Origin: a bacterium
Lineage (GTDB): Bacteria > UBA8248 > JACPRG01 > G963555815
Direction of reading: 5' to 3'
Assembly (NCBI GenBank): GCA_965218795.1
Contig: OZ244653.1
Coordinates: forward strand, 1,184,001 to 1,248,000
Length of the DNA stretch: 64,000 nucleotides
Positions 34,040-53,032 of the stretch are shown piece by piece (the first letter of the stretch is position 1; every line of letters begins with the position of its first letter). The translations under genes were made by a program, and so were the position numbers. The notes under the pieces were generated by a model that made no database searches, had not been told where the DNA came from, and saw only the letters and a list, made by a program, of their open reading frames with translations.

Positions 34040-35005
34040 GTGCCTGTGGCAACGTTCGGTGTCTTTCTCCCTGCATTCGGCTACCCGGCCATCACGCTCG
34101 AATTCCTGAAGGAAGCCGCACAGGAAGCGGAAGACCTCGGGTATACGGGCGTTTACGTCGCCGATCACCCAATCTATACGGAAGGGCTGGCGTCCTTCGG
34201 TCAGAAGGGGATCTACGACCCCATCGTCACGCTTTCGCAGATTGCCGCCGTCACCAGCACCATCAAGGTCGGCGCGGGCGTGCTGCTGGTCCCGCTCCGG
34301 CATCCGCTGATGCTGGCCAAGTCCCTCGCGACGCTGGATGTCGCATCCAACGGCCGCCTGGACAACGGCGTCGGGGTCGGCGCTTACGAGCCCGACTATC
34401 ATTCCACCGCCACGCCGTTCAGGAAACGGGGTCGGATGTACGACGAGGCCCTGGAGGTCATCACCCGCCTGTGGACGGAAGATTCGGTAACCCACGCCGG
34501 AGAGTTTTACCAATTGGATGGCGTCTCCCTCCAGCCCAAGCCGGTTCAGAAGCCTTTTCCCGGCTTTTGGTTTGGCGGCGATGTCCGGCGAACCTGGGAG
34601 CGCGCGGCGCGGATCGGATCCGGCTGGGGCCCCTGGGCGCCGACCATCGAACACATGCAGAATGGAATGACGGCGATTCGAGAGGTTGCTCAGGCGGAGG
34701 GCCGCGATCTAACCGGCTTCCGCTTCATCTGCGAGGCCTGGACCGCGGTCGATGACGATGTAAAACGCGCCGAAAGCGCTGTGGAGCCCGCGTTGTCCTA
34801 TTTCGTGAAGCACCATCAAATGGACATCGGGATGGACTTCATGCATTCCAACTCGTTCATCGGTCCGCCTGAGAAGATTGCGGCCCGCTTGCAGGAGTGG
34901 ATCGACATCGGCGTGAAAGAGTTCCACCTCGCTTTCTGCCCGTGGGAGAAGTGCCGGGAATCGATGAGAGTCGTGGCGGAAAAGGTCATACCGCAATTCC
35001 GATAG
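34040..35005 (+). CDS. LLM-class flavin/F420-dependent oxidoreductase
   Basis: AEDLGY, VADH, DPIVTL, LRHPLMLAKSLATLD.ASNGRL and PKPVQKP motifs. Confidence 0.93.
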   Translation: MPVATFGVFLPAFGYPAITLEFLKEAAQEAEDLGYTGVYVADHPIYTEGLASFGQKGIYDPIVTLSQIAAVTSTIKVGAGVLLVPLRHPLMLAKSLATLDVASNGRLDNGVGVGAYEPDYHSTATPFRKRGRMYDEALEVITRLWTEDSVTHAGEFYQLDGVSLQPKPVQKPFPGFWFGGDVRRTWERAARIGSGWGPWAPTIEHMQNGMTAIREVAQAEGRDLTGFRFICEAWTAVDDDVKRAESAVEPALSYFVKHHQMDIGMDFMHSNSFIGPPEKIAARLQEWIDIGVKEFHLAFCPWEKCRESMRVVAEKVIPQFR

Positions 35006-35048
35006 AAATTCGTATCGGAGACGGCCACCTGTAGACCATCAGCAGAAT

Positions 35049-36023
35049 ATGGAGGGAAATCCCGTGAGAAAATGTTTGAGGTTCGTTGTCGCCGCACTGG
35101 TATTTTCGATCTTTCTCGGAGCCAACGCGCAATGGGCCGCCTCGGCGGAGAAGGTCACGATGGTCGTAGGACCTTATGTGGGCTACGTCCAAATCTGGAA
35201 CATGAAGCCCTATGCCAAGAAGTACGGGATCGATCTCGAACTCAGAAAGATGTTTACCTTCACGCAGATGCAGCAAGCCGTCGAGCTCGGCCAAGCCCAA
35301 GCGGGCACCGTCGGCTACCAGAACCTGGTCTTGATGGCCGACGCGGGCGGGCCGGCGAAAGCCCAGGCCGTCGCCGGCGTTTACCGCCGCGGCCAGGACA
35401 TCGTCTTCCACAAGGACGTCAAGATCTCCAAGTGGAAGGATATCGAGGGGAAGACCATCGCGAGCGTGCCGGGATCCTTCTCGTACTTTCTGTTCCGTTT
35501 TGCCGCCCGGAGCAACGGCGTCGACCTGAAGAAGGTCAAGCTCAAAGGATTGACACCGTCGCCGACGATGCATCTGGCCCTCGAGCGTCGCGACGTAGAC
35601 GCGCTGGTGATTTGGGTGCCGGCCCTCGCCTTCCCCATCGCGAACGGATTCGGATACAGCCCCCCGATCACGATCAACGACACCGCCATCGGAAACATCA
35701 ACGCCCTGCTGGCCATGCGAACGGACTTCATCCAGAAGGGGAAGGTCGCCGTCGATATGATGAAGGCCTATGTGGCGGCCGCCGATCTCTTCGCGAAAGA
35801 CAAGGCGGCCTGGATGAAGGGCGCAAAATCCCTCACCGGAATGAAGCCGAATGTTCTCGAAGAATCTCTCAAGTTCCTGATTTTTGACACCAAGATGTAC
35901 CCCGAGAACCTGAAGATTCTGGCTGAGAACGCCTACAAGCTCAAAATGGTCAAGAAGGACACCAGCGGAACCGTCATGCAGTGGATGAACCCCTGCGTCC
36001 AGAAAGCGGCCCGCGGAATGTAG
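35049..36023 (+). CDS. NitT/TauT-type ABC transporter substrate-binding protein
   Basis: Signal peptide, WKDIEGKTIA, DALVIWVP; precedes permease and ATPase. Confidence 0.88.
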   Translation: MEGNPVRKCLRFVVAALVFSIFLGANAQWAASAEKVTMVVGPYVGYVQIWNMKPYAKKYGIDLELRKMFTFTQMQQAVELGQAQAGTVGYQNLVLMADAGGPAKAQAVAGVYRRGQDIVFHKDVKISKWKDIEGKTIASVPGSFSYFLFRFAARSNGVDLKKVKLKGLTPSPTMHLALERRDVDALVIWVPALAFPIANGFGYSPPITINDTAIGNINALLAMRTDFIQKGKVAVDMMKAYVAAADLFAKDKAAWMKGAKSLTGMKPNVLEESLKFLIFDTKMYPENLKILAENAYKLKMVKKDTSGTVMQWMNPCVQKAARGM

Positions 36024-36195
36024 GCAACCCATCCACGGGGCGTCCCATTCGGCGAAGACAGCAAGCGGCGGGCAAGTGTCTCCTGACACTTGTGTAAGGC
36101 GGGCAAGGAACCCGGCTCCCTCCACAGGGGATGGTCACGTCTCCGCCGCTTGACTCGCGGCCGGATCGGTGACTCCCCGCACCGGACAATCGCGC

Positions 36196-36978
36196 ATGGG
36201 CAATCAGACCTACCAGAAGCTGATCGTTCCCACCCTTTTCATCATCCTGTGGAGTATGGTCACTTGGTTAGAACTCGTGGAACCAAGGTACACGCCCTCT
36301 CCCAGGCAGGTGGTTCTCGGATGGTGGGAATGGATCGTCGGGTCCACCACGGATGCCGATGTCTGGTACTCGGGAACCTGGCTCAGCCACCTCGCGGACA
36401 GCTTCTACCGGGTGATGATCGGTTTCGCGCTTGCCGCGGCGGCCGGCGTAATCATGGGGATACTCATCGGGTGGTTCAGGCTGGTATCCAACCTGTTTGA
36501 CCCGTTCATCCAGTTGCTGCGGCCGATCCCGATCACGGCGTGGGTGCCCTTTTCCATTGTATTCTTCGGAATCCGGGACCCATCGGCGATTTTCCTCATC
36601 GGTTTCGGGACGTTTTTCCCCATCGTTGTGAATTCCACGGCCGGGGCCCAGCGCGTCCCCAAGGTCCTGATCCGGGCCGCATTGATGTTGGGAACCAAAC
36701 CCCGCAAGCTTCTCCATCGCGTGGTCATTCCTTCCGCCCTCCCGTCGATATTTACCGGATTGCGACTCGGCATCGGACTCGCCTGGGTCCTGGTGATCGT
36801 TGCTGAGATGCTCGCTGTGGATGCCGGCCTTGGCCGCGCTCTTTGGACGGCTTACGAGTTCATCCGGATGGACCTGATTGTTGCCGCCATGGTGAGTATC
36901 GGGCTCATGGGGTACCTCTCCGATTTGGTCATCGTCTTCATCCGGGACCGCGCGCTTCGCTGGGCAGAAGGAACCTGA
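36196..36978 (+). CDS. NitT/TauT-type ABC transporter permease
   Basis: LRPIP..AWVP, AALMLG, PSALPSIFTGLR and VAEML motifs. Confidence 0.93.
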   Translation: MGNQTYQKLIVPTLFIILWSMVTWLELVEPRYTPSPRQVVLGWWEWIVGSTTDADVWYSGTWLSHLADSFYRVMIGFALAAAAGVIMGILIGWFRLVSNLFDPFIQLLRPIPITAWVPFSIVFFGIRDPSAIFLIGFGTFFPIVVNSTAGAQRVPKVLIRAALMLGTKPRKLLHRVVIPSALPSIFTGLRLGIGLAWVLVIVAEMLAVDAGLGRALWTAYEFIRMDLIVAAMVSIGLMGYLSDLVIVFIRDRALRWAEGT

Positions 36979-36983
36979 ACTCG

Positions 36984-37778
36984 ATGGCTGGCGGTTTAAT
37001 CCGGTGCGAGGCTGTTCAAAAGAGTTTCTTCGATATCTCAGAAGGCCGGGAGATCGTCGCCATCCAGGAATTGGACCTCCAAGTGGAAAACGGCGAATTT
37101 CTCACAATCCTCGGTCCCAGCGGCTGCGGCAAGACCACCCTGCTCAATATCATCGCCGGCTTCGAGAACACGACCGCGGGCCAAGTGACCCTCCACGGAA
37201 ACCCCATTACGAAACCGGGCGCGGACCGGGGCGTCGTGTTCCAGGAGTACGCACTCTTCCCCTGGCTGACGGTCCTGGATAACGTGTGTTACGGCCTCAG
37301 GGAGAAGGGCATCCCCAGGGTGGAGCAGATCAAGACCGCTGAAGCCTATCTGAACGCCGTTGGTCTTGATGACTTTGGAAGCCGTTACCCCCATGAACTG
37401 TCGGGGGGGATGAGACAGCGGGTCTCTTTGATCCGCGTGCTCGCCAACGATCCCGAAATCCTCCTCATGGACGAGCCTTTTGCCGCGCTGGACGCCCAGA
37501 CCCGGAAGGACCTCCAGGAGGAGCTCGTCAACCTCTGGCAACAGGCGAACAAGACCGTCATCTTCGTCACGCACAATGTGGAGGAAGCGGTTTTCCTGGG
37601 AGACCGGGTCGTCGTGATGACCGCCAGGCCGGGACGGATCAAGAAAATCCTTGAGATTACGTTGAAACGGCCCCGGGATGTCATGGCTCCGGACTTCAAT
37701 GAAATCCGCCGGGAAGCCACAAAACTGGTGGAAGAAGAACTGAAAGGCCGCAGGCAGTCGATTCTCAGCGGCAATTGA
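36984..37778 (+). CDS. NitT/TauT-type ABC transporter ATP-binding protein
   Basis: GPSGCGKT, LSGGM, LLMDEPF and VTH motifs. Confidence 0.95.
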   Translation: MAGGLIRCEAVQKSFFDISEGREIVAIQELDLQVENGEFLTILGPSGCGKTTLLNIIAGFENTTAGQVTLHGNPITKPGADRGVVFQEYALFPWLTVLDNVCYGLREKGIPRVEQIKTAEAYLNAVGLDDFGSRYPHELSGGMRQRVSLIRVLANDPEILLMDEPFAALDAQTRKDLQEELVNLWQQANKTVIFVTHNVEEAVFLGDRVVVMTARPGRIKKILEITLKRPRDVMAPDFNEIRREATKLVEEELKGRRQSILSGN

Positions 37779-37889
37779 TTTGCCATCGCCCTGGGAAACG
37801 CCGGACGTCCGATATCAATGCCGATTGCCGAGGATATTCATGACCGCCCGGCATGTCCCCATGACCGCCGCTGAATCTCCGATTCAAGA

Positions 37890-38918
37890 ATGAAAGAAAG
37901 CGATCTCTGGCCGGTATTGAGGGATTACTGGCATCCGGTCGCCTTCTCGGAGGAAGTGTCCGATCGTCCGGTACCGATCGAACTCCTGGACGAGCGAATC
38001 GCCGTTTGCCGCCTCAAGGGTCGGGTCCGGGCCTTCCATGACCTCTGTATACACCGCGGCACCCCAATCTCCCTCGGGTGGGTCGAAGGGGAGCGTATCG
38101 TATGCGCCTACCACGGATGGGCGTACCGGGGGGACGGGAAATGCGTCCGAATTCCATCCCTTCCGTCCGAACACCCGATCCCCAAGAAGGCCTGCCTGAC
38201 CGCCTACCCCGCGGAAGAACGGTTCGGCCTCATTTGGGTGTGCCTGTCCGGGGCGCCCCGCGCAGCGATCCCCGAGTGCCCCGAATTTGACGACCCGTCC
38301 TTCCAGCCATTCCTGATGCAAAGGAAACGCTGGAAAGGCAGCGCCGCGCGCGTCATGGAAAACTTTCTGGATCAGTCCCATTTCGCCTGGGTCCATGAGG
38401 GCATCCTCGGGGATCGCTCCCATCCCATCGCGCCCGAGATGGAACTGGAGCGGAACGCAGAGACCTTCGCCTGCTCGTTCGAGAACATCCCGACGCCTAT
38501 TGCGCCCTTTCCGCATCGCCAGACTTACCACGTCCATCTGCCCTTCTGCTGTCATATGCTGAAGGCGGAGCATGGGACCCGGGCCAAGGTGCTGTACGTG
38601 GTCGGTCTTCCCCATGCGAGCCGCGTGAGCACCCGCTTCCTGATCGGCCTCAGGAACTACGACCTCGAACAGCCCGATATCGCGAACGGACCCGTGCACG
38701 TCCTCGAAGACGACGTCCGGGGCGATGCCGGCGATCCGGTCGTGCAGGAGGTCGTCCGGAGCCATGAAGTCGTCTACGAACAGGACGTTGTCATCGTCGA
38801 GCAGCAGCGACCGGAAGAGCTGCCTCTCGACCTGACGGAGGAGCTTCACGTCAAGACCCCCGACGCCGCAGCCATCGAGTATCGAAGAATGCTCAAGGAG
38901 ATCGGTCTGGAGGGCTGA
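37890..38918 (+). CDS. Rieske non-heme iron oxygenase alpha subunit (paralog of 17663-18661)
   Basis: CIHRG...CAYHG, ENFLDQSHFAWVH and QRPEELPLDLTEELHVKTPD. Confidence 0.93.
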   Translation: MKESDLWPVLRDYWHPVAFSEEVSDRPVPIELLDERIAVCRLKGRVRAFHDLCIHRGTPISLGWVEGERIVCAYHGWAYRGDGKCVRIPSLPSEHPIPKKACLTAYPAEERFGLIWVCLSGAPRAAIPECPEFDDPSFQPFLMQRKRWKGSAARVMENFLDQSHFAWVHEGILGDRSHPIAPEMELERNAETFACSFENIPTPIAPFPHRQTYHVHLPFCCHMLKAEHGTRAKVLYVVGLPHASRVSTRFLIGLRNYDLEQPDIANGPVHVLEDDVRGDAGDPVVQEVVRSHEVVYEQDVVIVEQQRPEELPLDLTEELHVKTPDAAAIEYRRMLKEIGLEG

Positions 38919-38963
38919 ATGGACGGGTGTTTCGAGGAACCGCCTGAACGGCGGGGCCTGCTC

Positions 38964-39836
38964 TCATTCGAACTTGAATCGCCAGGTATCGCCGTCCCGG
39001 ACGATCCGGCCCGCCGTGGGGGAAGGGAAGTGGGCCGGAAAAACGAGGGTGTCGGTGTCGCAGTACCGGTTCAGGAAGGCCCGGCGGGTGGCCCTGGCGA
39101 GGTCGGAGTCGGCGCAGAAGCAACTGCTCCAATCCGGCTCGGCGCATTGGATGGCGTGGTGCATCAGGTCCCCGCTCATTACGATTTCCGATCCCCCCGA
39201 AGACAGGTGGGCGCAGACGTGACCGGGCGTGTGCCCGGGGCTCGGCTCGAGCCGCATGACCTCATCGAGCTCGAAGCCGTCATCCACGAAATCGGCCTGC
39301 CCGGCCGCGATGACGGGTGAGATGCTGTCCTGGTAATGCAGATGCTCGTCGTCCTCGGGGTCCCGGAATCGCCCTTCCCAGTATTCCCACTCCCGCCTGC
39401 CGAACAGGTACCGCGCGTTGGGGAACGTGGGTACCCAACGGCCGTCCCTGAGCCGCGTGTTCCATCCCACGTGGTCGACGTGCAAGTGGGTGCAAAAAAC
39501 GAAGTCCACATCTTCGGGAGTCACTCCGGCCGCGGCGAGGTTTTCAAGATAGGGCCACTGCTTCATGTGATAGCGGGCTCGTTGGGGCCTGCTCTTGTCG
39601 TTGCCCCCGCACGTGTCGACGAGGATCGTGTGGCGGGGCGTCCGAATCACGAGCGAATGAAACGAGAGGATGAGCAGTCCGGTCTTCGGGTCCAGCAGGG
39701 ACGGCTCCAGCCAATGGCGATGGCCATCGATGGCTTCTGGCGTGCAGTCGGGAAAAAGCTCAAAGGGGTCCAACGATGGGCCCTCGAATTCGAGGACCCG
39801 GTCAATGGCAATATCTCCAAGAGGCCACTTGTTCAT
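38964..39836 (-). CDS. MBL-fold metallo-hydrolase
   Basis: THLHVDHVGWNT, PTFPNARY, PGHTPGH, SGDLMH and PAHFP; start moved to ATG 39836. Confidence 0.92.
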   Translation of the reverse strand: MNKWPLGDIAIDRVLEFEGPSLDPFELFPDCTPEAIDGHRHWLEPSLLDPKTGLLILSFHSLVIRTPRHTILVDTCGGNDKSRPQRARYHMKQWPYLENLAAAGVTPEDVDFVFCTHLHVDHVGWNTRLRDGRWVPTFPNARYLFGRREWEYWEGRFRDPEDDEHLHYQDSISPVIAAGQADFVDDGFELDEVMRLEPSPGHTPGHVCAHLSSGGSEIVMSGDLMHHAIQCAEPDWSSCFCADSDLARATRRAFLNRYCDTDTLVFPAHFPSPTAGRIVRDGDTWRFKFE

Positions 39837-39926
39837 TGACCAAACTCTCCGTCGGCGCGATACCCCGATGTTCGGCTCATCCGATCCGGATTCCGGGGCG
39901 TCGAACCCGAACCGGGAGGAGCACCC

Positions 39927-40240
39927 ATGGCGTATGTTCGCCAAATTGAACCCAAGAATGCAACTGGCGAAGTCAAAGAATTTCATGACAGGCTCATCGA
40001 AAGGGATGGGCAGGTTCGCGGGCTCTTCAAGCTGTCCAGCTTGAAACCCGACATCATGTTCGGGCTGAGCGCTCTTTACAGCACGGTCATGTATGGAGAA
40101 TCTGGCCTCTCTCGCGCCGAAAAGGAGACGGTCGCGATCGTCGTGTCGGAGATCAACGGGTGCGGCTACTGAGTCCAGAACCACGGAGGGTCGCTCCGTA
40201 AGGAACTGGACGATGAGGAGCTCGCCCGACAGGTCATCCC
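39927..40240 (+). CDS. AhpD/CMD-like peroxidase-related protein with in-frame UGA (CxxU), probable selenoprotein; 3' part appears lost
   Basis: SGLSRAEKETVAIVVSEINGCGY-TGA-VQNHGGSLR matches the AhpD-like CxxC...H motif with TGA (40170-40172) at the second Cys; family-like sequence continues after the TGA. Confidence 0.75.
40173..40211 (+). promoter_or_regulatory. Bacterial SECIS-like stem-loop
   Basis: GTCCAG-AA-CC-ACGGAG-(GGTCG)-CTCCGT-AA-GG-AA-CTGGAC directly after the UGA; apical loop starts with G. Confidence 0.7.
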
Positions 40241-40244
40241 GAAC

Positions 40245-40399
40245 CCCCTCAAAAACTTTCATTTCGCGAGCAGGCCGAGCATTGGCTATTCGCGCGGTCA
40301 AGAAGGTGATGGAAGGCATGGCCGTATGAATTGGGAGCATCTGAGGGGACATTTTGAAAATCGCCCCCTCAGACTCCCCTCAAAAACTTTCGTTTCGCG
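40245..40399. repeat. 24-bp direct repeat pair / REP-like element
   Basis: CCCCTCAAAAACTTTC(A/G)TTTCGCG at 40245 and 40376; hairpin CTGAGGGG...CCCCTCAG between them. Confidence 0.75.
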
Positions 40400-41697: not shown

Positions 41698-43365
41698 ATG
41701 GGCAAGAGAGAAGATGCTGCACGAGGCATCAGCCGTCGCGAGTTTCTGGCAGGGACCGCGCTTGCCGCCGGCGGGGCCATGCTGGGCCCCATCATGATTT
41801 CGAGCGCCTACGGACAGGTCATGCCGGGAAAAGAACTCCCGCCGCTGAGGTTTGAGAGCTACTCGGACTCCATGACCGTTGAAGGTGTGCGTATTTACGC
41901 CCGGGAGCTGGCGAAGATCGGGATCCGTGTGGACCATCGGCCCATGGCCTTTCCCGCCTTTTTGGGCAAGGTGTACTTCAATCACAAATTCACACTGGCC
42001 ATGGGCGGGTTCGGATCGGCGGAGGAGCGCATCGATCCCGACTTTTATCTCCGGGCCCTGTACCGGAGCAAGGGCGGATTCAACGTTTCGGGGTACAGCA
42101 ACCCCGAGTACGACAAAGTCATCGACGCGCAGCAGCAGGAACTGGATCCCGCAAAGCGCAAGAAGCTGATTGAAGAAGCGCAGCGCATCTGGGCCCGCGA
42201 TCTCCCTTCCTGGTGGGTGTTGGGCCGGGCCACGGTCAATCCCTACAACACCCGTCTGTTCAGCAATTACCGTTTCCGCAAGGTCACGGGCCTGAGCGCG
42301 TACAGCGTGCTTCCCTATCTCGAACTGCAGCCGACCGGCAGCGTCAAGGAAGTCAACGTCGCTACGGTCTTCCGGATGAGCTCGGCCCACCTGTTGACGG
42401 AGCGGGCGTCGAACGGGCGCGGATTCCTCCGCTTCGTCTATGACACCTTCCTGAAGTACGACATGGATTACAACCTGAAGCCTTGGGCCGCCGAGTCGTA
42501 CAAAATTGTGGACGCCACCACCATCGACATCAAACTTCGCGATGGAATGAAATGGCATGACGGCCGGCCCGTCACGGCCGATGACGCCAAATTCACGTTT
42601 GATTACATCCGAAAATGGAAGCCGCCCATCTGGCGGTTCGCCATCTCCCCCGTCAAGAGCGCCGAAAAGCTGGATTCCCTGACCGTGCGGGTGCGCCTCA
42701 ACGCGCCCTCCGCCACGTTCATCACGGTCAGTCTGGCCTACATCACGATTCTCCCGCAACACATCTGGAAGGACGTGCCGGAAAAGGCGGGGGTCAAGAA
42801 GCCCAGCGAGTGGAACATGGCGAAGCACGGCGCGATCGGCAGCGGTCCGTTCAAATTCGTTTCCTTCAAGAAGGACGTGGACTGCCACGTCGTGGCTAAT
42901 CGGGATCACTGGACGGGCGGTCCGAAACTGGACGGCGTTCATTACATCCAGGCCACCGGCGTGGAGCAGGAAAAGGGCGGCATGGAGAACCAAAGCATCC
43001 ATATCGTGGATGAGGGACTCAATCCTCCCGACGGCGAAAAGCTGGCTGAAAAGCCCTACATCGGCCTGCACATCCAGCCGAGCCAGACCATCATGTCCTT
43101 CTTCCTGGACATGCGGAATCCGCTGTTCCAGGACCCGGCGCTCCGGACGGCCATGTACCTGGCAACGCCGAAAAAGAATATCCTGGACATCGCCGCCGCC
43201 GGGGGCGGCCTGGTCGGCCGGCGCTCCCCGTTGCCGCCCGTCTTCACGAAATGGATCCCATCGGATCTGCCGGGCGACGAGTTCAACCTGGATGCCGCCA
43301 AGAAATCTCTCGCCGACGCCGGGTACACCTGGAAGAACGGTGTCCTCGTGATGAAGAAGGCCTGA
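41698..43365 (+). CDS. Family 5 (Dpp/Opp/Nik) ABC substrate-binding protein, Tat-exported, circularly permuted
   Basis: Tat motif SRREFL; KLRDGMKWHDGRPVTADDAKFT, IGSGPFKF and NVSGYSNPEYD motifs present in non-canonical order. Confidence 0.9.
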   Translation: MGKREDAARGISRREFLAGTALAAGGAMLGPIMISSAYGQVMPGKELPPLRFESYSDSMTVEGVRIYARELAKIGIRVDHRPMAFPAFLGKVYFNHKFTLAMGGFGSAEERIDPDFYLRALYRSKGGFNVSGYSNPEYDKVIDAQQQELDPAKRKKLIEEAQRIWARDLPSWWVLGRATVNPYNTRLFSNYRFRKVTGLSAYSVLPYLELQPTGSVKEVNVATVFRMSSAHLLTERASNGRGFLRFVYDTFLKYDMDYNLKPWAAESYKIVDATTIDIKLRDGMKWHDGRPVTADDAKFTFDYIRKWKPPIWRFAISPVKSAEKLDSLTVRVRLNAPSATFITVSLAYITILPQHIWKDVPEKAGVKKPSEWNMAKHGAIGSGPFKFVSFKKDVDCHVVANRDHWTGGPKLDGVHYIQATGVEQEKGGMENQSIHIVDEGLNPPDGEKLAEKPYIGLHIQPSQTIMSFFLDMRNPLFQDPALRTAMYLATPKKNILDIAAAGGGLVGRRSPLPPVFTKWIPSDLPGDEFNLDAAKKSLADAGYTWKNGVLVMKKA

Positions 43366-43376
43366 TCGACGGGTAT

Positions 43377-43410
43377 CGGGAGGGGGCCGCGGGGCCGCTC
43401 CCCCCTCCCG
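43377..43410 (+). terminator. Intercistronic GC-rich hairpin after the binding-protein gene
   Basis: CGGGAGGGGG...CCCCCTCCCG with no U-tract; may stabilise mRNA rather than terminate. Confidence 0.5.
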
Positions 43411-43441
43411 CGCCCGCATCTCTCTGAGGCCATACCCCACG

Positions 43442-44410
43442 ATGCGTCGCTACGTCCTCCGCAGGGTCGCCCAGATCATTTTTGTCCTTTGGGCCCTGAT
43501 CACCATTATGTTTTTCCTCTTTCGGCTGGTCCCTGGCGATCCGGTCGCCATGATCATCTCGGCCGAGCTGACCGAGAGCGCACGGGAAGCCCTCCGCGAG
43601 GGCTGGGGTTTGAACCGTCCCCTGGGCCAACAATACTTTCTTTATGTCAAGAACCTGCTGATTGGCGATTTCGGCCTGTCGTTCTACCACCAAGAGCCGG
43701 TGTGGGAGGTGCTGGGCGAAAAGGTCGTCAATACCCTGGCACTCATGATCCCGGCCACGGCAATAGGAGTCGTCCTCGGCGTTTCGGGCGGCATGTACCT
43801 GGGGTGGTGGCGGGGCTCGCGTCTGGAACGGATCGGGGTCATGCTCCCTCCCCTGATTCGGGCGATGCCCGTGTTCTGGCTGGGGGTGCTCCTCCTGATG
43901 GTGTTCTCCTACAAGTTCGGACTTTTTCCGAACGGAGGAATGCGCTCCATCGGCACGTTTCCCAAAGGCTGGGCCGACACCTTCTTCTCAACGGACTTCC
44001 TTTGGCACTTGACCCTCCCGTTGGTTTGCACGGTGATTACCTCGGTTCCCGAACCGATGCTCATCATGCGGAGCAGTATCCTGGAAACCCGGGGTGAGGA
44101 GTACATCGAGCTCCTGCAGGCCAAGGGAGTCAGGGAGCACGTCGTTCTCAAGCATGCGGCCCGCAACTCCATGCTGCCGGTGGTGACCTGGGTGTTTCAC
44201 ATGTTCGGCTACGCCATCGCCGGAACGGTGCTCGTCGAGGTCGTTTTTGCGTGGCCCGGTCTGGGCCGGGAGTTGATCACGGCCGTCAACAACCATGACT
44301 ATCCTGTTTCCCAGGCGGCGTTCTTCCTCATATCGGTCATCATTCTCGGCTTGAACTTCATGAACGATATGGTGTACGGCCTGTTGGATCCGCGCGTGGT
44401 GTTGAACTAA
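43442..44410 (+). CDS. Dpp/Opp ABC permease (DppB-like)
   Basis: PGDP, GDFGLS, MPVFWLG, EEYI...AKG, HAARN and WPGLG motifs. Confidence 0.94.
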   Translation: MRRYVLRRVAQIIFVLWALITIMFFLFRLVPGDPVAMIISAELTESAREALREGWGLNRPLGQQYFLYVKNLLIGDFGLSFYHQEPVWEVLGEKVVNTLALMIPATAIGVVLGVSGGMYLGWWRGSRLERIGVMLPPLIRAMPVFWLGVLLLMVFSYKFGLFPNGGMRSIGTFPKGWADTFFSTDFLWHLTLPLVCTVITSVPEPMLIMRSSILETRGEEYIELLQAKGVREHVVLKHAARNSMLPVVTWVFHMFGYAIAGTVLVEVVFAWPGLGRELITAVNNHDYPVSQAAFFLISVIILGLNFMNDMVYGLLDPRVVLN

Positions 44411-45366
44411 TGGAAAACCTGAGCGTCGAGCACAAACCGTCCGAGCCGTCTCCTGAAAGGGCCTTGGACCCTGCCGGCATCCACGCCGAGAAATCCAGGT
44501 TGTTCCGGGGCATCCGAGAGATTGCGCATACCCTTTGGGGGGATGCCTTTGGGCGCGCCGGCATTTGCATTCTTCTCCTGTTTCTCATCGTTGCGATCGT
44601 TTCCCCTCATATCGGCCCGGATGACCCCTGGAAGCACCATTACAACCCTGAGAACCAACTCGCGCGACTCGAGTCGGCGTCCGGCCGGCACTGGTTCGGA
44701 ACCACTTATTACGGGCAGGACGTGTTCACCCAAACGGTGCGGGGGACCCGCGTAGCCTTTGCCGTTGGAGTGATCACGGCGGTTCTGATCGTCATCATCG
44801 GGACGAACATCGGCCTGATCGCCGGCTACTTCGGGGGGTGGACCGACGATTTTCTGATGCGGATCACCGACATCGCCTACGCCATTCCCTTCCTTCCGTT
44901 CATGATTGTCGTTGTGAGCCTGGTCGGCCCCCGACTGGAGACCATCATCCTGTCGATGTCGCTGCTCTTTTGGCGAACGGAGGCGCGGGTCGTGCGTTCC
45001 CAGGTCCTGAGCCTGCGCGAACGTCCCTACATTCTCGCAGCCCGAGCGAGCGGCGCCGGCCACATCAGGCTCCTCTACGTCCACCTCCTGCCCAACGTCC
45101 TGCCCATCGCGTTTCTCTATCTGGTCTTCGGTGTGGCCTGGGCGGTATTGACCGAAGCCAGCCTGAGTTTCATCGGGCTCGGGGATCCAAACCAGGTCAG
45201 CTGGGGATTGATGCTCTTTCACGCATTCAGCTCGGGATCCATGCGGGACGCATGGTGGTGGGTCGTTCCGCCGGGTTTGGCGCTGATGATCTTTCTCTTG
45301 GCCTGTTATTTCATGGGCCGCGCCTACGAAGAGCGAATCAACCCCCGCCTGCAGCAAAGCTCATGA
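44410..45366 (+). CDS. Dpp/Opp ABC permease (DppC-like)
   Basis: HWFGT..GQDV, AARASGA, HLLPN, EASLSFIGLG and SWGLM motifs. Confidence 0.94.
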   Translation: MENLSVEHKPSEPSPERALDPAGIHAEKSRLFRGIREIAHTLWGDAFGRAGICILLLFLIVAIVSPHIGPDDPWKHHYNPENQLARLESASGRHWFGTTYYGQDVFTQTVRGTRVAFAVGVITAVLIVIIGTNIGLIAGYFGGWTDDFLMRITDIAYAIPFLPFMIVVVSLVGPRLETIILSMSLLFWRTEARVVRSQVLSLRERPYILAARASGAGHIRLLYVHLLPNVLPIAFLYLVFGVAWAVLTEASLSFIGLGDPNQVSWGLMLFHAFSSGSMRDAWWWVVPPGLALMIFLLACYFMGRAYEERINPRLQQSS

Positions 45367-46397
45367 GCCTGCTTTCCGTTCAGGATCTGAACATCCGGTT
45401 CCGGACCGCCGACGGGGAACTGAGGGCGGTGGACGGGGTGTCTTTCGATCTTGCGGAAGGCGAATCGATCGGAATCGTGGGCGAGTCGGGTTGCGGGAAG
45501 ACGACCCTGGCCAAGTCCATCTTTCGCATCCTCCCTCCCAACAGCCTGGTTCCGGCAGGAAGAATCCTCTTTCGGGGCATCGACCTGCTGCAACTCCCTC
45601 CCCCCGCGATGCGGCAGGCCCGCTGGCGCGACCTGTCACTCATCACCCAGAGCGCCATGGCCGCCCTGGATCCGGTGTACCGGGTGGGCGCGCAGATCGT
45701 CGAAGTCATCCGGGCGCACGAAGACTGCTCGCGGAAAGAGGCCTGGGAACGCGCGGGGAAGTTGTTCAATGCCGTCGGTCTCGATACCAACCGGCTTCGG
45801 AATTACCCTCACCAATTCAGCGGCGGGATGCGGCAGCGAGCCGTGATAGCGATGGCGCTTGCCCTGGATCCGCCGCTGGTGGTCGCCGACGAGCCGACAA
45901 CGGCACTCGACGTGATCATGCAGGATCAGGTTTTCGAGGAAATCGCCCGCCTCCAGCAGGCGGGGCAAAAGGCTCTGATTCTCATCACCCACGACATCTC
46001 CTTGGTGGCGGAGAACTGCGATCGCGTGGCCGTGATGTACGCCGGTCGGATTGTCGAACTGGCTCCGGTACGCGAGATTTTTTCTCGGCCCATACACCCG
46101 TACACCATCGGGTTGCAAAACGCCTTCCCCGATTTGAAGGGAAAAACCAGAGGGTTGATCTCCATCCCGGGCGCGCCGCCCAATTTGACGGCGCCCTACC
46201 CCGGCTGCCGTTTCGCTCCCCGGTGTCCGTTCGTCCAGGAGCGGTGCACAAGGGAGGATCCACCGCTATCCGGCGTTGGGCCGAATCACCAGGTCGCCTG
46301 TCATTTTCCCGAAAAGGCCGCGGAGTTCCGGGACGCGGGGAGGCAAGAGAAAATCTGGGAGAGGGACGGGACGGCCGAGACGACGGGATTGACATGA
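45363..46397 (+). CDS. Dpp/Opp ABC ATPase (DppD-like)
   Basis: GESGCGKT, FSGGM, ADEPTTALD and GCRFAPRC; start moved to ATG 45363. Confidence 0.95.
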   Translation: MSLLSVQDLNIRFRTADGELRAVDGVSFDLAEGESIGIVGESGCGKTTLAKSIFRILPPNSLVPAGRILFRGIDLLQLPPPAMRQARWRDLSLITQSAMAALDPVYRVGAQIVEVIRAHEDCSRKEAWERAGKLFNAVGLDTNRLRNYPHQFSGGMRQRAVIAMALALDPPLVVADEPTTALDVIMQDQVFEEIARLQQAGQKALILITHDISLVAENCDRVAVMYAGRIVELAPVREIFSRPIHPYTIGLQNAFPDLKGKTRGLISIPGAPPNLTAPYPGCRFAPRCPFVQERCTREDPPLSGVGPNHQVACHFPEKAAEFRDAGRQEKIWERDGTAETTGLT

Positions 46398-47425
46398 CCG
46401 CACTCATTTTGCAGGTCCGCGGGTTGAAGAAGTACTTTCCTCTCCGGGGACAAATGCTATCCGAGATACTGCCCCGTGGAACCCCTCCTATTGTCCGGGC
46501 GGTGGAAGACGTCAATTTCGAGCTGGCCGAAGGAGAGGTGCTGGGTATCGTCGGTGAGAGCGGCTGTGGAAAAACGACCACAGGGCTGACCACGCTCAAA
46601 CTCTATCCGCCATCGGCCGGCGAGATCCGATTCCTCGGAAAGGACATCGCCCCGTACCGGGGAAATCAGCTTCGAGATTTCAGACGCCAAGCGCAGCTCA
46701 TCTTTCAGGATCCCTATCAATCCCTCAACCCGCGTTTTACCGTATTCGACACGATTCGTGAGCCGCTCGTCATTCACGGCCTGGCCAAAGGGAAGAAGTT
46801 GGTGGACCGGGTTCTTGAGACGCTGGACATCGTCAGGCTTCGTCCTCCGGAGATATTTCTCGACCGCTACCCCCACGAGCTGAGCGGGGGACAGCGTCAA
46901 CGGGTCGCCATCGCGCGCGCGATGGTGGTGCGCCCGCGATTCATCGTGGCCGACGAGCCCGTCTCCATGTTGGATGTCTCGGTTCGGGCGGGGATCCTGG
47001 AGCTGCTCAGGCGGTTCAGTCGGGAAGCCGGTCTCTCCCTGCTGTATATCTCTCACGACATTTCGACGGTCCGATATCTCTGTGACCGCACGGCCATCAT
47101 GTACCTGGGCCGAATCATCGAGACGGGTCACACGGAAACCCTCATCGAAAATCCCCGTCATCCGTATACGAAGGCGTTGCTTTCCGCCGTTCCCTTGTCC
47201 GACCCCGACGCCAACAGACCGCGCACCCGCCTCAAGGGAGATGTGCCGAGCCCTGTGCAACGCCCGGGGGGGTGCGTTTTTCATCCCAGGTGTCCGGAGG
47301 TCTTTGCCCCCTGCGGCGAGCAAATTCCCGGCTTCCACGCGGGAACGGACGGTCAGGAGGTCGCCTGTCACCTCTACGGGGAAGAGGCCGGGGACCGCAT
47401 GATTCCAAAGGGTGAAGGGACCTGA
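46394..47425 (+). CDS. Dpp/Opp ABC ATPase (DppF-like)
   Basis: GESGCGKT, LSGGQRQR, ADEPVSMLD and GCVFHPRC; start moved to ATG 46394. Confidence 0.95.
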   Translation: MTALILQVRGLKKYFPLRGQMLSEILPRGTPPIVRAVEDVNFELAEGEVLGIVGESGCGKTTTGLTTLKLYPPSAGEIRFLGKDIAPYRGNQLRDFRRQAQLIFQDPYQSLNPRFTVFDTIREPLVIHGLAKGKKLVDRVLETLDIVRLRPPEIFLDRYPHELSGGQRQRVAIARAMVVRPRFIVADEPVSMLDVSVRAGILELLRRFSREAGLSLLYISHDISTVRYLCDRTAIMYLGRIIETGHTETLIENPRHPYTKALLSAVPLSDPDANRPRTRLKGDVPSPVQRPGGCVFHPRCPEVFAPCGEQIPGFHAGTDGQEVACHLYGEEAGDRMIPKGEGT

Positions 47426-47460: not shown

Positions 47461-48798
47461 CTACGCAGCCGAGGCCGCGCCTGAGATTCTGGGCGGTTTC
47501 TGTCCCGCCGGGACGATGGGATCGTAAACGAACCCTTCGGTCTTCGTCCCCCACTCTTTCCGGATCTCTTCAAGCAATTCAGGCTGGGTCATGTAATCCA
47601 GGGTCGTGGCGGCCAGGATCTTGGCGGCGTACAGCATTCCCTTTTCGCCCAGCCCCATCCGGTATTGTTCGGTGGCGGAAACGTGATGTTCCGGCGTTTC
47701 GGGCGCCCGGCAGGTGATCATGCACATGCTGAAGGGGACCAGCCAGCTGACGTTGCCCAGGTCATTCGACCAAGGGCCGGTTCCGCCGACAAAGGGGCCG
47801 GATACTGTCTCGTCAGGCTCCGTGTAATTGAATTTCTTCTGCGGGAACTCCTTCTCCTCCTTTGTAAACTTCGGCGGTGAAATGGCCTCCAGATTGGCAT
47901 GCATGACCCGGGCGGCCGATTCCAGCGGCAGGGAATCGTAAACCCCGGTGATGGTCGTGGCTTTGACTTCGGTCTCGGTCGCGTGAGCGGCCCCCTCCGC
48001 ACACCGGAAAAGCCGCTCGGTGTTTGATCTTAGGATTTCCCGATTGAAATAGCGCATGAAATACCAGCTTCTGGCGTATGGTGGTACGACGTTAGGGAAA
48101 ATCCCACCGTCTGGAATGACATAATGCAGCATCGAACCCCGCGGCAGGTGCTCCCTCAGGTGGTTCGCTGCATAATTCATGATTTCAACCGCATCCAGGG
48201 CGCTCCTCGCGTCGAACGGGGCGACGCCCGCGTGCGCGCTCTTGCCGAAGAACTCGTAGAGGATGGAGTCCATCGCCATGGACCCGACGTTCATGACGGC
48301 GTTTTCCTTACCCGGGTGCCAAGCCATCACGGTGTCCAATCCATCAAAAACACCGTCTCTCGCCATATAGACCTTCCCGACCAGGGTTTCTTCCGCCGGC
48401 GTCCCGAAGACCTTGAGGATTCCGCCGACCCGCGATTTTTCCATGGCCGTTTTCGCGGCAATCGCCGCCGCGACCGTGCCGGTCCCATAAAGATTGTGCC
48501 CGCATCCGTGCCCCGGGCCGTCGCCTTCGACCGCACACTGCGGCACGGCATCGTATTCGGCCAACAACCCGACGGTCGGGCCGTCCTCCCCCCAGGTCGC
48601 GACGAACGCCGTGGGCATGTCGGACACGCCTTCCTCAATCTGAAACCCGGCTTCCCGCAGAACGCGGACCAACAAGGCAGCAGACTTGTACTCTTCCAGG
48701 CCCAGTTCCGCGTATCCCCATATTTCCCGCGAATACTCGATCAATCGCTCGCGTTCATCTTCAACCCACTGAATGGCCGTCTCTTTCTCTTTTCCCAT
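47461..48798 (-). CDS. M20 amidohydrolase, AbgB (aminobenzoyl-glutamate utilization B)-like
   Basis: ELGLEE, EYDA, HGCGHN, GTPAEE, WHP and SALDAVE motifs; start moved to ATG 48798. Confidence 0.9.
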   Translation of the reverse strand: MGKEKETAIQWVEDERERLIEYSREIWGYAELGLEEYKSAALLVRVLREAGFQIEEGVSDMPTAFVATWGEDGPTVGLLAEYDAVPQCAVEGDGPGHGCGHNLYGTGTVAAAIAAKTAMEKSRVGGILKVFGTPAEETLVGKVYMARDGVFDGLDTVMAWHPGKENAVMNVGSMAMDSILYEFFGKSAHAGVAPFDARSALDAVEIMNYAANHLREHLPRGSMLHYVIPDGGIFPNVVPPYARSWYFMRYFNREILRSNTERLFRCAEGAAHATETEVKATTITGVYDSLPLESAARVMHANLEAISPPKFTKEEKEFPQKKFNYTEPDETVSGPFVGGTGPWSNDLGNVSWLVPFSMCMITCRAPETPEHHVSATEQYRMGLGEKGMLYAAKILAATTLDYMTQPELLEEIRKEWGTKTEGFVYDPIVPAGQKPPRISGAASAA

Positions 48799-49215: not shown

Positions 49216-50505
49216 ATGACGGACCGAGAAGTCATCCATTGTCCCGATGTACCGACTCCGATTGTCGGCTCACACGCGGTGAGAGCGGGCGACTTTTTGT
49301 TTCTGGGGGGACAAATTCCCTCTGATTATCAGACCGGTCTGGCCCTCGAGGCGAGGGGCGGCCGGGGAGCAATGGAGCCGGTCGTCGCTTCGAAACTTCA
49401 ATCCGGTTACATTCTTCAGCACGCAGAAAAAATATTGCGCGCAGCGGGTTCTTCGTTGGAACGCGGGGTTCGGATCGATCAGTTCTGCACCCATCCGGAC
49501 GCCGCATCTCCTTACCTGGAAGTCCGGACTCGTCACGTGGATCCGCAGACCCGGCCATCGAGCACCCACGTTCAAATTGAATCCCTGCTGGTCCCCGATG
49601 CGCTCTGCGGGCTCCAGTTGATCGCATTGACGGAGGCGAGCGGGGCGAAGAAGGAAATGGTCGTCGTGCCGGACCTGAGCACGTCCCCCGGGCCTCCCTT
49701 CAAGCCAAGTCCGCAGGCGCTGACAGCCGGAGATTTCGTTTTTGTGACCGGTCAGGTGGCCAGCGATTTTGACTCCGGGCTCGCGGCCGAAGCCCGGACG
49801 AACCCCGATTTCTGGTATGGTTCATCCATCAAGCTGCAGACCGATTACATCATGAAACGCTGCGAGATCATCCTCGAGGCTTCGGGCAGCTCTCTGCAAA
49901 ACGTCGTTCGGGCCGATATTTATCTGACGGAAATGAAGGACTTCTATGAGTTCGAGGAGGTCTGGAAGCGCTACTTCCCCGAGGAGCCACCGGCCCGGAC
50001 CTTCATTCCGGTCAAGCGTCTCGGACCTCGCGACTGCATCGTGGAAATCAACATGATCGCCCTGAAACAACGAAGCCCTTTGAAAAAGAAGACGATCTCG
50101 GCCGCTGGCGTTCCGCATCCCGATGTTCACCACCCTCATGCAGTCCAGGCCGGTGATTTTGTGTTTATTTCCGGTATGTGCGCCACGGATTTTGCGAACG
50201 GCCTGGCGCCCGAAGCCGGTGTCAATCCCGCTCTCCCATGGTTCAGCTCTTCCGCGAAAAAGCAGACAGAATACATTCTGAAAAATGTCGATGGCGTTTG
50301 CCGTGCGGCGGGGAGCAGCCTGGAGAACGTGGTCTGGATGCAAAACCTTTATACGGTCCCCAACGAGTTTTTCCCTGCATCGGAGGTGTTTCGCGCTCAC
50401 TTCCCGAACCACCCGCCTGCTCTCCTGGCCGTCCAGGTTCAACCCCCGCATCTAGTCAAGAGCTGCACCATCCTGTTCGATGCCGTGGCGGTTGTAACCG
50501 ATTGA
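49216..50505 (+). CDS. Protein with three tandem RidA/YjgF (Rid) domains
   Basis: Three repeats of AGDF.F..G, Q..YI, A.GSSL.....; PPART only in the middle domain. Confidence 0.9.
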   Translation: MTDREVIHCPDVPTPIVGSHAVRAGDFLFLGGQIPSDYQTGLALEARGGRGAMEPVVASKLQSGYILQHAEKILRAAGSSLERGVRIDQFCTHPDAASPYLEVRTRHVDPQTRPSSTHVQIESLLVPDALCGLQLIALTEASGAKKEMVVVPDLSTSPGPPFKPSPQALTAGDFVFVTGQVASDFDSGLAAEARTNPDFWYGSSIKLQTDYIMKRCEIILEASGSSLQNVVRADIYLTEMKDFYEFEEVWKRYFPEEPPARTFIPVKRLGPRDCIVEINMIALKQRSPLKKKTISAAGVPHPDVHHPHAVQAGDFVFISGMCATDFANGLAPEAGVNPALPWFSSSAKKQTEYILKNVDGVCRAAGSSLENVVWMQNLYTVPNEFFPASEVFRAHFPNHPPALLAVQVQPPHLVKSCTILFDAVAVVTD

Positions 50506-50700: not shown

Positions 50701-50777
<77 letters not shown>

Positions 50778-51079
50778 AACATCTTATCTCTCGAAGATGC
50801 ACGAAATTTTCAGGAAATCTTCTCACTAGTATCTTTAATCTCAGACAGGATACCTGTCAAGCACTCACCCCTCGGCGCTCTATTGCGTCCAACTTCATTG
50901 ATGTGACACAATCTACGATGCTCTGGAGGTGTTTCTCCTGTCGATCGCCGGATTCACATCGATTCCTGAATTCCGTTGCCTGTGGCTGCCCAAAACTCCA
51001 TCCCATTGCCTGCAAAGGTCGTTCGCATCGCTGTATCCCTGGACCCATCCCATCCGGTCGGGGATGGAGGTCAGGGCCA

Positions 51080-53032
51080 GTGAAGGTGCTTTTCCTCGTC
51101 CCGTACCCCACAGATGGGGCCAGCAATCGGCTGCGAATCGAGCAGTACCTTCCCTACCTGGAAGAACATGCCGTCCATGGGCATGTCCATGCGTTCATGT
51201 CGAGACGGCTGTATTCAATCTTCTACGGTGAAGGCCGCCGCCTGGAAAAATTCATCCACCTCGGCGTATCACTCGTCAGGCGCATATTTGTCCTTCTCAG
51301 AGCCAATCGCTATGACGTCATCGTCATTCATCGAAGGGTTCTGCCATTCTGGAACTCCTTTGCAAGATTTCTGTTTCGACGAATCCGGCGGCCTATCGTC
51401 TATGATTTTGACGATGCTGTCTTCCTGTCAGACACGCGAGGCGGTGTTTTGGGCCGCGTCGCCTCCTGGTTGGGGCAGCCCAAACAGGTCACTGAAATCC
51501 TGAAAGCCAGCACGGTTGTCATTGCGGGCAACGAAGCGCTCCGGAATTATGCCCTCCAATTCCACTCGGATGTCCGCGTCTTGCCGACGCCGGTGAATGA
51601 CGATCTGTTTCAGCCGCAACCAAAGGAAAAGAATCGCGGGCGGCTCGTCATCGGCTGGATTGGCAGTCATACCACCGCCCCCTATCTTCATCAATTGGAT
51701 CAGGCATTCGAATCTCTCCTCAAACGTTTCCCGGAATTGAAAATTCATGTGGTCGGCGGCCGTTATGAATTAATCGGGGACGACGCGCGAATTCTGAATA
51801 TTCCTTGGAAATTGGATTCGGAACAGCAAGTCTTGAGCCATTTTGACATCGGTGTCATGCCGCTCAAGGACGACCTATGGGAACGGTACAAGTGCGGGTT
51901 CAAGGCCCTTCTCTATATGAGCATGGGGATTCCGGTTGTATGTTCGCCCGTGGGCGCCAACAACCAGATTGTTTGTGATGGCGTCAATGGGTTCTTCGCA
52001 AGGACGACGGAGGAGTGGGTGGAGCGCATGGTGGGCCTGCTCGAAGACGAGAGGCTTCGCAGGAGGATGGGGGGCGAGGGCCGCAGGACGGTTGAGAAAC
52101 ACTACTCCGTTCGTAGAAATGCCCCCGAGTTTCTGGGAATTCTCGATGAGGCTGCCGCTGCCCATCGAATGGAAGCCCGGCGCTTCCACCAACTCCAGAG
52201 GATGACCCAAAAGAGTTTTGATTTTCAGTGGACGCAGTTTCCAGACATGGTCCCGGCCAATGAGGATCATTTTTTGAACTATATCCATCCCATACGACCG
52301 GAATTCTTTCAGGGAAAGCTGGTACTCGACGCGGCTTGCGGGTTTGGGCGTCACGTCTATTATGCGTCCACCTACGACGCCGGCCACATTGTCGGAATGG
52401 ATTTCAGCAACGCCATTTTCTCGGCCCGGGAAGTGAATGAAGGACAGTCCAACGTCTCTCTGGTCAAGGGGGATATCTACAAGCTGCCATTCAGGAAAGA
52501 CTCCTTCGACTGCATTTACAGTTTAGGCGCCCTGCATCATCTGCCGGATCCCGAAGGTGGATTCCATGGGCTTATGCAATACGTCAAGCCTGGCGGGATT
52601 GTCGCGATCTGGGTATACAGCAAGAAGCGTCGATGGTTGAACTATATACTTGAGGGAGTGCGTTTTGTTACGAGGAACATTCCTTTCGCCACACTCAAGA
52701 AAATTTGCTTCTTTTGCGCTTGCGTGGATTACTTCTGCTTCGTTTTTCCCTATAAGCTTTTGCGCCGAATTCCCCTGATCGAGAAAAAGATGCTTCCTCG
52801 AATCAAACTCTACGCAAAGTTTCCGTTCTGGGTGAACTATGCTGACTGGTTTGATCGTCTCTCCGCCCCGGTCCGCTACTACTTCAATTCGGAAGACATG
52901 AAAGACTGGGGACGAAGGGCGGGTCTCGTCAACGTGATTGTCTCTGCAACGGGGCGGTACGGTTGGAGACTCTACGGAGAACGCCCGCCTGTGGGGGCTC
53001 GCGAACCGGCTGAAACGGTGGTTTCTACTTGA
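51080..53032 (+). CDS. GT4 glycosyltransferase fused to a class I SAM-dependent methyltransferase
   Basis: N-part: YDFDDA, IGWIGS, DIGVMPL, KCGFKALLYM, GIPVVCSPVG. C-part: SFDFQW, VLDAACGFGR, YSLGALHH, AIWVY, DWFDRL. GTG start at 51080 behind GGAGG. Confidence 0.87.
   Translation: MKVLFLVPYPTDGASNRLRIEQYLPYLEEHAVHGHVHAFMSRRLYSIFYGEGRRLEKFIHLGVSLVRRIFVLLRANRYDVIVIHRRVLPFWNSFARFLFRRIRRPIVYDFDDAVFLSDTRGGVLGRVASWLGQPKQVTEILKASTVVIAGNEALRNYALQFHSDVRVLPTPVNDDLFQPQPKEKNRGRLVIGWIGSHTTAPYLHQLDQAFESLLKRFPELKIHVVGGRYELIGDDARILNIPWKLDSEQQVLSHFDIGVMPLKDDLWERYKCGFKALLYMSMGIPVVCSPVGANNQIVCDGVNGFFARTTEEWVERMVGLLEDERLRRRMGGEGRRTVEKHYSVRRNAPEFLGILDEAAAAHRMEARRFHQLQRMTQKSFDFQWTQFPDMVPANEDHFLNYIHPIRPEFFQGKLVLDAACGFGRHVYYASTYDAGHIVGMDFSNAIFSAREVNEGQSNVSLVKGDIYKLPFRKDSFDCIYSLGALHHLPDPEGGFHGLMQYVKPGGIVAIWVYSKKRRWLNYILEGVRFVTRNIPFATLKKICFFCACVDYFCFVFPYKLLRRIPLIEKKMLPRIKLYAKFPFWVNYADWFDRLSAPVRYYFNSEDMKDWGRRAGLVNVIVSATGRYGWRLYGERPPVGAREPAETVVST

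Follow-up and report, generated by a model that had tools for sequence, protein, structure and literature searches.

Cluster C substrate-binding proteins (family 5, PF00496) of known structure include CcNikZ-II (8efz), 5u4o, Listeria CtaP (5isu), E. coli DppA (1dpe/1dpp), GsiB/YliB (1uqw) and AppA of Bacillus subtilis (1xoc), the closest solved relative of the protein analysed here. According to excerpts of PMC10924461, the two termini of canonical members meet at the sheet of domain I, and the residues of lobe 2 form a single continuous stretch between two hinge segments, as in residues 287-539 of YejA. In DppA, dipeptides are held by Arg383, which binds the peptide carboxylate, and by Asp436, which binds the amino group (excerpts of PMC12136057). 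A natural circular permutation is on record for TpMglB-2 (Tp0684) of Treponema pallidum, an ABC binding protein classed as 'Type Ic / Cluster Bc' whose family of homologs shares its topology; it retains binding and closure, and its authors raised membrane tethering as a possible reason for the rearrangement (excerpts of PMC4990184). That protein has a type I sugar-binding fold, whereas the one described here has the PF00496, cluster C fold; the permutation of TpMglB-2 adds a fourth hinge crossing (same excerpts), whereas ours probably keeps its two crossings unchanged. The likeness goes no further than both being natural permutants. By analogy, a permuted cluster C family would be named 'cluster Cc'. 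In the open full-text literature, we found no report of a permuted family-5 protein. The excerpts of two candidate prior descriptions, PMC2588589 and the DomainMapper preprint, were not pertinent.

The window, that is, the whole stretch of 64,000 nucleotides analysed, contains on its forward strand an open reading frame (41698-43365) whose sequence, profile and model matches identify a circularly permuted family-5 (cluster C) substrate-binding protein of 555 residues (P0001, the query of our comparisons). Like canonical cluster C proteins, it has all the structural elements, a normal length, an export signal, two permeases and two oligo_HPY ATPases. It differs from them in that the chain is rotated by about 355 residues, with both termini placed in lobe 2 and not in domain I, in a distinctive RxDP arginine, and in that the ligand residues of DppA and OppA are not retained at their positions. 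The translation opens with a twin-arginine-type signal peptide (41698-41814), composed of SRREFL (41731-41748, residues 12-17), a hydrophobic stretch and a probable cleavage site after AYG; SRREFL fits the twin-arginine motif of the Tat consensus. Block A (residues 41-211, 41818-42330) then corresponds to the canonical C-terminal third, with the second half of lobe 2, the second hinge strand and the last strands of domain I. It includes the clade-specific arginine of R111-I-D-P (42028-42039), in the loop that carries Trp433 and Asp436 in DppA. A new linker (residues 212-216, 42331-42345) joins the old C-terminus to the old N-terminus, and block B (residues 217-555, 42346-43362) corresponds to the canonical N-terminal two thirds, with domains I and II, the first hinge and the first half of lobe 2, ending in a cut hairpin. 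The swapped motif order of the original prediction is borne out, since all the motifs that it quoted occur in the stated sequence within the gene (from ARELAKIGIRV to RDLP at residues 68-170, 41899-42207; VYDTFL at residue 247, 42436). Its boundaries need adjustment: the swapped block starts about 20 residues upstream of ARELAKIG, and the protein continues for 12 residues beyond LADAGY, finishing TWKNGVLVMKKA.

Sequence comparisons place the two blocks in exchanged order throughout. In the PDB sequences 5u4o, 5isu and 1xoc, chain positions of about 40-360 align with residues 216-552 of the query and positions of about 348-483 with residues 56-170; for 5u4o, the pairs are 40-360 with 216-544 and 379-483 with 64-168. 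A 60-sequence profile of the family matches AppA (1xoc) in the same two pieces, residues 24-347 at profile positions 220-543 (i-E 1.5e-67) and residues 359-497 at positions 45-188 (i-E 4.2e-15). Used as a separate query, residues 41-212 hit the C-terminal part of full-length family-5 chains among the matches listed. The PF00496 profile scores 205.8 bits (curated cut-off 32.4), its best stretch pairing residues 260-548 with positions 2-283 of 368. Hence no collinear full-length alignment exists, and of the two swapped partial hits that had been foreseen, this non-collinear one appeared, while the second was not displayed at the cut-off used. The canonical protein P0356 is matched over 66-374 by residues 258-549 of P0001 (E 2e-23) and over 386-542 by residues 39-191 (E 1e-13). 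Another canonical protein, P0384, runs continuously across both new ends, its first part resembling the C-terminus of the permutants and its second part their mature N-terminus. The linker is within 2 residues of its modal length in 269 of 331 permuted rows. Canonical cluster C chains have both termini in domain I, an order that P0001 breaks by its swapped blocks, and we therefore class it as a permuted variant rather than as a plain member of cluster C.

No NCBIfam binding-protein model reached its cut-off for P0001. The DppA model (NF043070) gave 47.8 against a cut-off of 1005, a gap larger than the score reduction due to permutation, and the OppA model (NF011684) 31.1 against 947. Scores were also below threshold, with mainly one block scored, for the Opp4A/AppA-like NF045467 (120.6 versus 650) and the NikA-like NF045468 (98.7 versus 600) and TIGR02294 (59.4 versus 393).

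The predicted structure agrees with this arrangement. An AlphaFold2 model built on the 60-sequence alignment has a mean pLDDT of 93.1 and a pTM of 0.87; values of 95-98 extend over residues 201-220, spanning the new linker, and the signal region has low pLDDT except for one helix. In VIA-align, model residues 209-554 superpose on residues 18-357 of AppA 1xoc (Z 25.7, rmsd 4.0, 334 aligned), and residues 39-178 on residues 385-526 of 3o6p, the structure of a C-terminal fragment (Z 9.7, rmsd 3.1, 136 aligned), which confirms block A structurally. The two blocks are thus matched separately by known proteins, and together these matches recover the two lobes, the extra domain II and the length of about 500 residues typical of cluster C. 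Block A folded alone, without an alignment, gave a pLDDT of 42 and was not used. Matches in Foldseek and VIA-align are sequential and cover block B alone: the top 46 rows from a set of 48,161 representatives are near-full-length cluster C proteins, all lying on model residues of about 209-555 over at most 339 residues. None of the matches listed by the PDB sequence searches, by Foldseek or among the top rows and representatives of VIA-align is a permuted solved structure, and such a structure is likely absent. The new ends lie at the tip of a beta-hairpin on the surface of lobe 2, where a loop follows the 'A-G-Y' helix, and about five residues bridge the former termini, which are neighbours in domain I. 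The end of block B aligns to residue 409 of YejA, within lobe 2. Each pair of ends, the old in lobe 1 and the new in lobe 2, lies within a single lobe, so that neither hinge crossing should be altered.

Four partner genes follow on the same strand, intact as the original prediction held, and overlap stop to start: a DppB/OppB-type permease (43442-44410; PF00528 and PF19300), a DppC/OppC-type permease (44410-45366; PF00528, with an Opp4C-like best match below cut-off), a DppD/OppD-type ATPase (45363-46397; PF00005 and PF08352), whose ATG overlaps the dppC stop, and a DppF/OppF-type ATPase (46394-47425; PF00005 and PF08352), whose ATG overlaps the dppD stop. The locus thus encodes two permeases and two oligopeptide-type ATPases besides a binding protein whose export signal is read from its translation. 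A GC-rich stem-loop (43370-43416, forward strand) separates the gene of this protein from dppB and is no stronger than those of shuffled sequences (z -1.15), and scans for promoters and terminators stayed at chance level. We consider that P0001 is an anciently permuted cluster C protein serving as the receptor of a working five-gene Dpp/Opp-type ABC importer, with a probability of roughly 0.8. The receptor would be exported by Tat and would retain the Venus flytrap closure on its ligand, the two hinge crossings being unchanged; the ligand would then be handed to DppBC/DppDF for ATP-driven import. The departure from canonical systems would be that a signal peptide, lipid anchor or C-terminal anchor hangs from lobe 2. 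In all permutants the termini, and hence any tether, have moved to that lobe. Rough patterns find a twin-arginine motif in 89 and a lipobox in 43 of the 230 full-length proteins of the main permuted clade (delimited below), and a C-terminal anchor in none.

Beyond the operon lie an M20 amidohydrolase gene, convergent with it (47461-48798, reverse strand; PF01546/PF07687; TIGR01891 at 199 bits, cut-off 154), and a gene for a three-domain RidA-family protein (49216-50505, forward strand; PF01042 in three stretches). M20 genes also occur in four of the five closest loci (L002-L005), and three-domain RidA homologs recur near the closest relatives (L002, L003 and L004). The amidohydrolase is a candidate enzyme for the imported compound. 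Two other features of the window may be recorded. An upstream cluster (34040-40352) of catabolic character encodes an LLM oxidoreductase, an SsuA/NMT1-type ABC importer, a Rieske oxygenase with a VanA-type C-terminal domain and a hydrolase of the metallo-beta-lactamase fold. A long reading frame at 50750-53032 (forward strand) encodes a group-1 glycosyltransferase and, fused to it, a class I methyltransferase, with a GC content of 53-55% versus about 60%.

What the importer carries is a matter of more tentative reasoning. The arginine of the DppA Arg383-equivalent loop is absent in P0001 and present in 43 of the 325 rows of the main clade. The column of OppA Arg439 is hydrophobic in the clade (M/I/L/T/A), arginine falling outside its eight commonest residues; this arginine, in the motif R-A-G-W-x-A-D of OppA, has a role in ligand binding. 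Conversely, RxDP is found in 303 of the 325 main-clade rows versus 1 of 136 canonical rows. The simplest reading of these alignments is that Arg111 takes over the binding of an anionic group, although it may instead be structural. The loop of Trp433 and Asp436 is two residues longer in the clade than in DppA, and the equivalent of Asp436 depends on how the insertion is placed. With the alignment anchored on the left, P0001 has Ala108, and Asp occurs in 8 of 325 rows; with it anchored on the right, the two-residue insertion lying on the left, P0001 has Glu110, and an acid occupies this position in 223 of 325. That acid could replace Asp436, which would fit a free alpha-amino group. The Trp433 column holds W in 44% of rows, and other pocket positions vary widely, so that ligands probably differ between subgroups.

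We favour, at slightly below even odds, a small amide-containing amino-acid derivative as the cargo, such as an N-acyl or otherwise modified amino acid or dipeptide. Its carboxylate would be held by Arg111 in place of DppA Arg383 or OppA Arg439, and the adjoining M20 amidohydrolase would split it. Next in rank, and possible without being probable, is the uptake of ordinary unblocked di- or oligopeptides by the same permuted receptor, with Glu110 standing for Asp436, Arg111 for Arg383, and the permutation neutral. The frequent acid at position 110 speaks for it, as do the oligopeptide binder AppA, which is the closest structural and profile match, and nearby genes of the M20, M24, M28 and S15 peptidase families. 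It is weakened by the scarcity of Asp in the left-anchored Asp436 column and by hydantoinase/oxoprolinase, racemase, enolase-superfamily, FAD-oxidase and opine-dehydrogenase neighbours, which suggest modified compounds. The scoop loop of DppB also lacks the E41-R42 pair, but so do those of OppB, GsiC and DdpB; in this loop we found no conserved acid to pair with Arg111, and it does not separate the family from those three permeases.

The genes surrounding other permuted receptors help little in choosing between ligands. In 80 genome loci, each neighbour cluster was identified through a single representative (67 scanned), and 63 of the unclustered neighbour reading frames revealed no recurring theme. 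Enolase-superfamily genes were found in 19 loci, M20 genes and FAD oxidases in 15 each, M28 in 14, and hydantoinase/oxoprolinase B and racemases in 9 each. An amide or peptide hydrolase adjoins the operon in 39 of the 80 loci (35 of the 53 with at least 15 kb) and in three of five annotated canonical controls. Because hydrolases are as common near these controls, they fit an amino-acid-derived or peptide-like cargo without being specific to it, and as a ligand clue the neighbourhood does no better than this small control of five canonical loci.

Such surroundings also bear on a ligand unrelated to amino acids or peptides, such as a sugar acid, a heterocycle, an organosulfur compound or a metal chelate. 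This was the idea of the original prediction, whose 'probably non-peptide ligand' is not established: the DppA/OppA residues are changed, but an acid lies two places on in most of the clade. We regard such a ligand as unlikely. In its favour, the entry titles of solved cluster C proteins name sugars, opines, nickel chelates and EDTA; mandelate-racemase/enolase genes, often between dppB and dppC, and the LLM, Rieske and RidA genes of the window point the same way. Against it, the recurring neighbours in the closest subgroup are the M20 amidohydrolase, an S9-like hydrolase and RidA, which indicate amide or amino-acid chemistry, and the modified amino acid or small amide remains our favoured cargo.

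Some subgroups of loci have a distinctive gene content of their own. A mandelate-racemase/enolase-superfamily gene lies inside the operon, between dppB and dppC, in L012 (12907-14076), L024, L029, L032, L035, L036, L040, L049, L055, L058 and L078; several FAD-dependent oxidase genes then follow in many of these loci, with a LysR regulator close by. A divergent M28 peptidase gene lies upstream in a second subgroup (L044, L050, L051, L059, L061, L066, L071, L073, L076 and L079) and also in L090 and L093. Hydantoinase/oxoprolinase A and B genes follow downstream in most loci of this second subgroup, and an Asp/Glu/hydantoin racemase often accompanies them; this gives a lead towards pyroglutamyl or cyclic-amide cargo. 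In a further subgroup (L028, L033, L046 and L091), DppC is elongated (about 556-566 residues) and a single long ATPase gene encodes about 770-790 residues (cut off in L046).

The survey of homologs recommended at the outset returned the same order almost everywhere. It is permuted in 119 of 121 sequences (the query and the best 120 of 821 homologs), the other two being fragments, and in 139 of the best 150 representatives at 50% identity, with 4 canonical and 7 partial; a whole permuted gene is present in 79 of 80 genome loci, kept from 550 relatives found. These three sets overlap and were selected for their similarity to the query; the counts therefore measure breadth and not frequency. One locus (L004, 8914-10558) has its permuted gene split across two frames, an error or a pseudogene. 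Partner genes in the 80 loci are DppB-like in 72, DppC-like in 68 and ATPases in 66, many of the remaining loci being short contigs. Record titles and tree labels name Pseudomonadota, Bacillota, Methylomirabilota, Thermodesulfobacteriota, Synergistota, Spirochaetota, Thermotogota, Chloroflexota, Actinomycetota, Sysuimicrobiota, SAR324 and haloarchaea, more than 10 bacterial phyla overall, and a Nitrospinota protein is 66% identical to the query. Permuted members are present in complete replicons of cultured strains, and the six annotated plasmid copies checked, including HVO_RS00095 on pHV3 of Haloferax volcanii, are all permuted and all named only 'ABC transporter substrate-binding protein'. 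The H. volcanii protein is divergent (622 residues), and its locus (L088, 13818-19764), which also has two permeases and a single long ATPase gene, lies immediately upstream of xylose/arabinose degradation genes; presumed older locus tags of H. volcanii are absent from main texts and from the supplements of PMC8241124. The suspicion that such permutants sit unremarked in databases was well founded, as they bear generic names only; the ESM Atlas likewise has PF00496 clusters only, under generic names. The permuted cluster C subfamily is real, widespread and apparently undescribed.

Each block was given its own trees, from which fragments and the proteins P0270 and P0272 were omitted. Near-canonical relatives were sought with the canonical protein P0228, which gave 119 new matches (112 canonical, 1 partial and 6 permuted). 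In FastTree analyses of 466 rows, block B unites the 325 main permuted rows in a single branch (support 99), and block A is less clean, with 5 changes. With IQ-TREE on 71 rows, the 31 main permuted rows form a single branch with both blocks (SH-aLRT 100 for block B and 97 for block A), as anticipated for a distinct subfamily. Both halves fall within the same larger canonical group (support 97 and 98) and descend from the same canonical subgroup. Recovery of the same clade from both blocks indicates one shared history, as expected for a true permutation. That the swapped order might stem from misassembly, from a recent accident or from the joining of two unrelated genes into a chimera can be dismissed, given the same order across independent genomes and in complete replicons, the agreement of both halves and a GC content that is flat along the gene. 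Permuted genes also travel with their own permease lineage: the DppB-like permeases encoded at permuted loci, 73 rows in all, group on a single branch (support 100) apart from 15 others. These others are all distant canonical permeases; the branch shows shared descent and not co-adaptation.

The canonical-order relatives P0243, P0356/P0359 (Nitrospinota) and P0384 (Ca. Hydrothermarchaeales) agree with the permutants at the start of the YDPxR helix, in the sequence of the hairpin where the chain is cut and in the C-terminal strand from which the linker derives. Unlike the permutants, they have the normal order and lack the RxDP arginine; P0243, P0356 and P0384 are the sister group in the block B tree (SH-aLRT 91) but not in the tree of the shorter block A. 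The permutation would have arisen by tandem duplication followed by trimming of both ends. One long protein, P0270 (1858 residues), was considered as a permutant and rejected, as it is a canonical tandem SBP5-SBP5 pair fused to a kinase domain and an AAA domain; the existence of this tandem pair, in an unrelated fusion, means that a duplication route is available. A weak search among the 10 longer homologs found revealed no duplication intermediate from the permuted family itself.

The six additional permutants (P0343, P0344, P0347, P0349, P0361 and P0373) are of archaeal type, one being named Ca. Korarchaeota; they have the same hairpin cut, lack RxDP and carry C-terminal hydrophobic anchors in six cases out of six. 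They fall at two places among canonical proteins, and a tree constrained to unite all permutants is worse by 28.6 log-likelihood units (p-AU 0.133). There may have been one to three origins of the permutation, and the six archaeal-type proteins may be separate ones. A bolder scenario, which we hold to be doubtful, has two or three independent permutations at the same lobe 2 hairpin (in the main RxDP clade, in the Korarchaeota-containing P0343/P0349/P0361/P0373 and in the pair P0344/P0347), each shifting the membrane tether out of lobe 1 into lobe 2; in the main clade, a new arginine-based site would have come to bind amino acids that are N-blocked or modified, and this clade would have spread, together with its own permeases, in bacteria and haloarchaea. 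If this were true, permutation would be a recurrent, selected change in receptor tethering and docking.

Overall, P0001 represents a topology variant of a known machine and not a new kind of system. Even so, a subfamily with rotated order, comprising at least 139 clusters at 50% identity, exists within one of the best-studied classes of binding proteins, and profile-based annotation overlooks a third of such proteins. The cut hairpin marks a site of the scaffold that tolerates new termini, of use in biosensor design. Genetic work is feasible in Haloferax volcanii (HVO_RS00095), Ketogulonicigenium vulgare and Neorhizobium, which all have members, and near-canonical sister proteins permit direct comparison. 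The subfamily offers a natural experiment on the effects of permutation, which may be neutral or bear on tethering, the route of export or docking.
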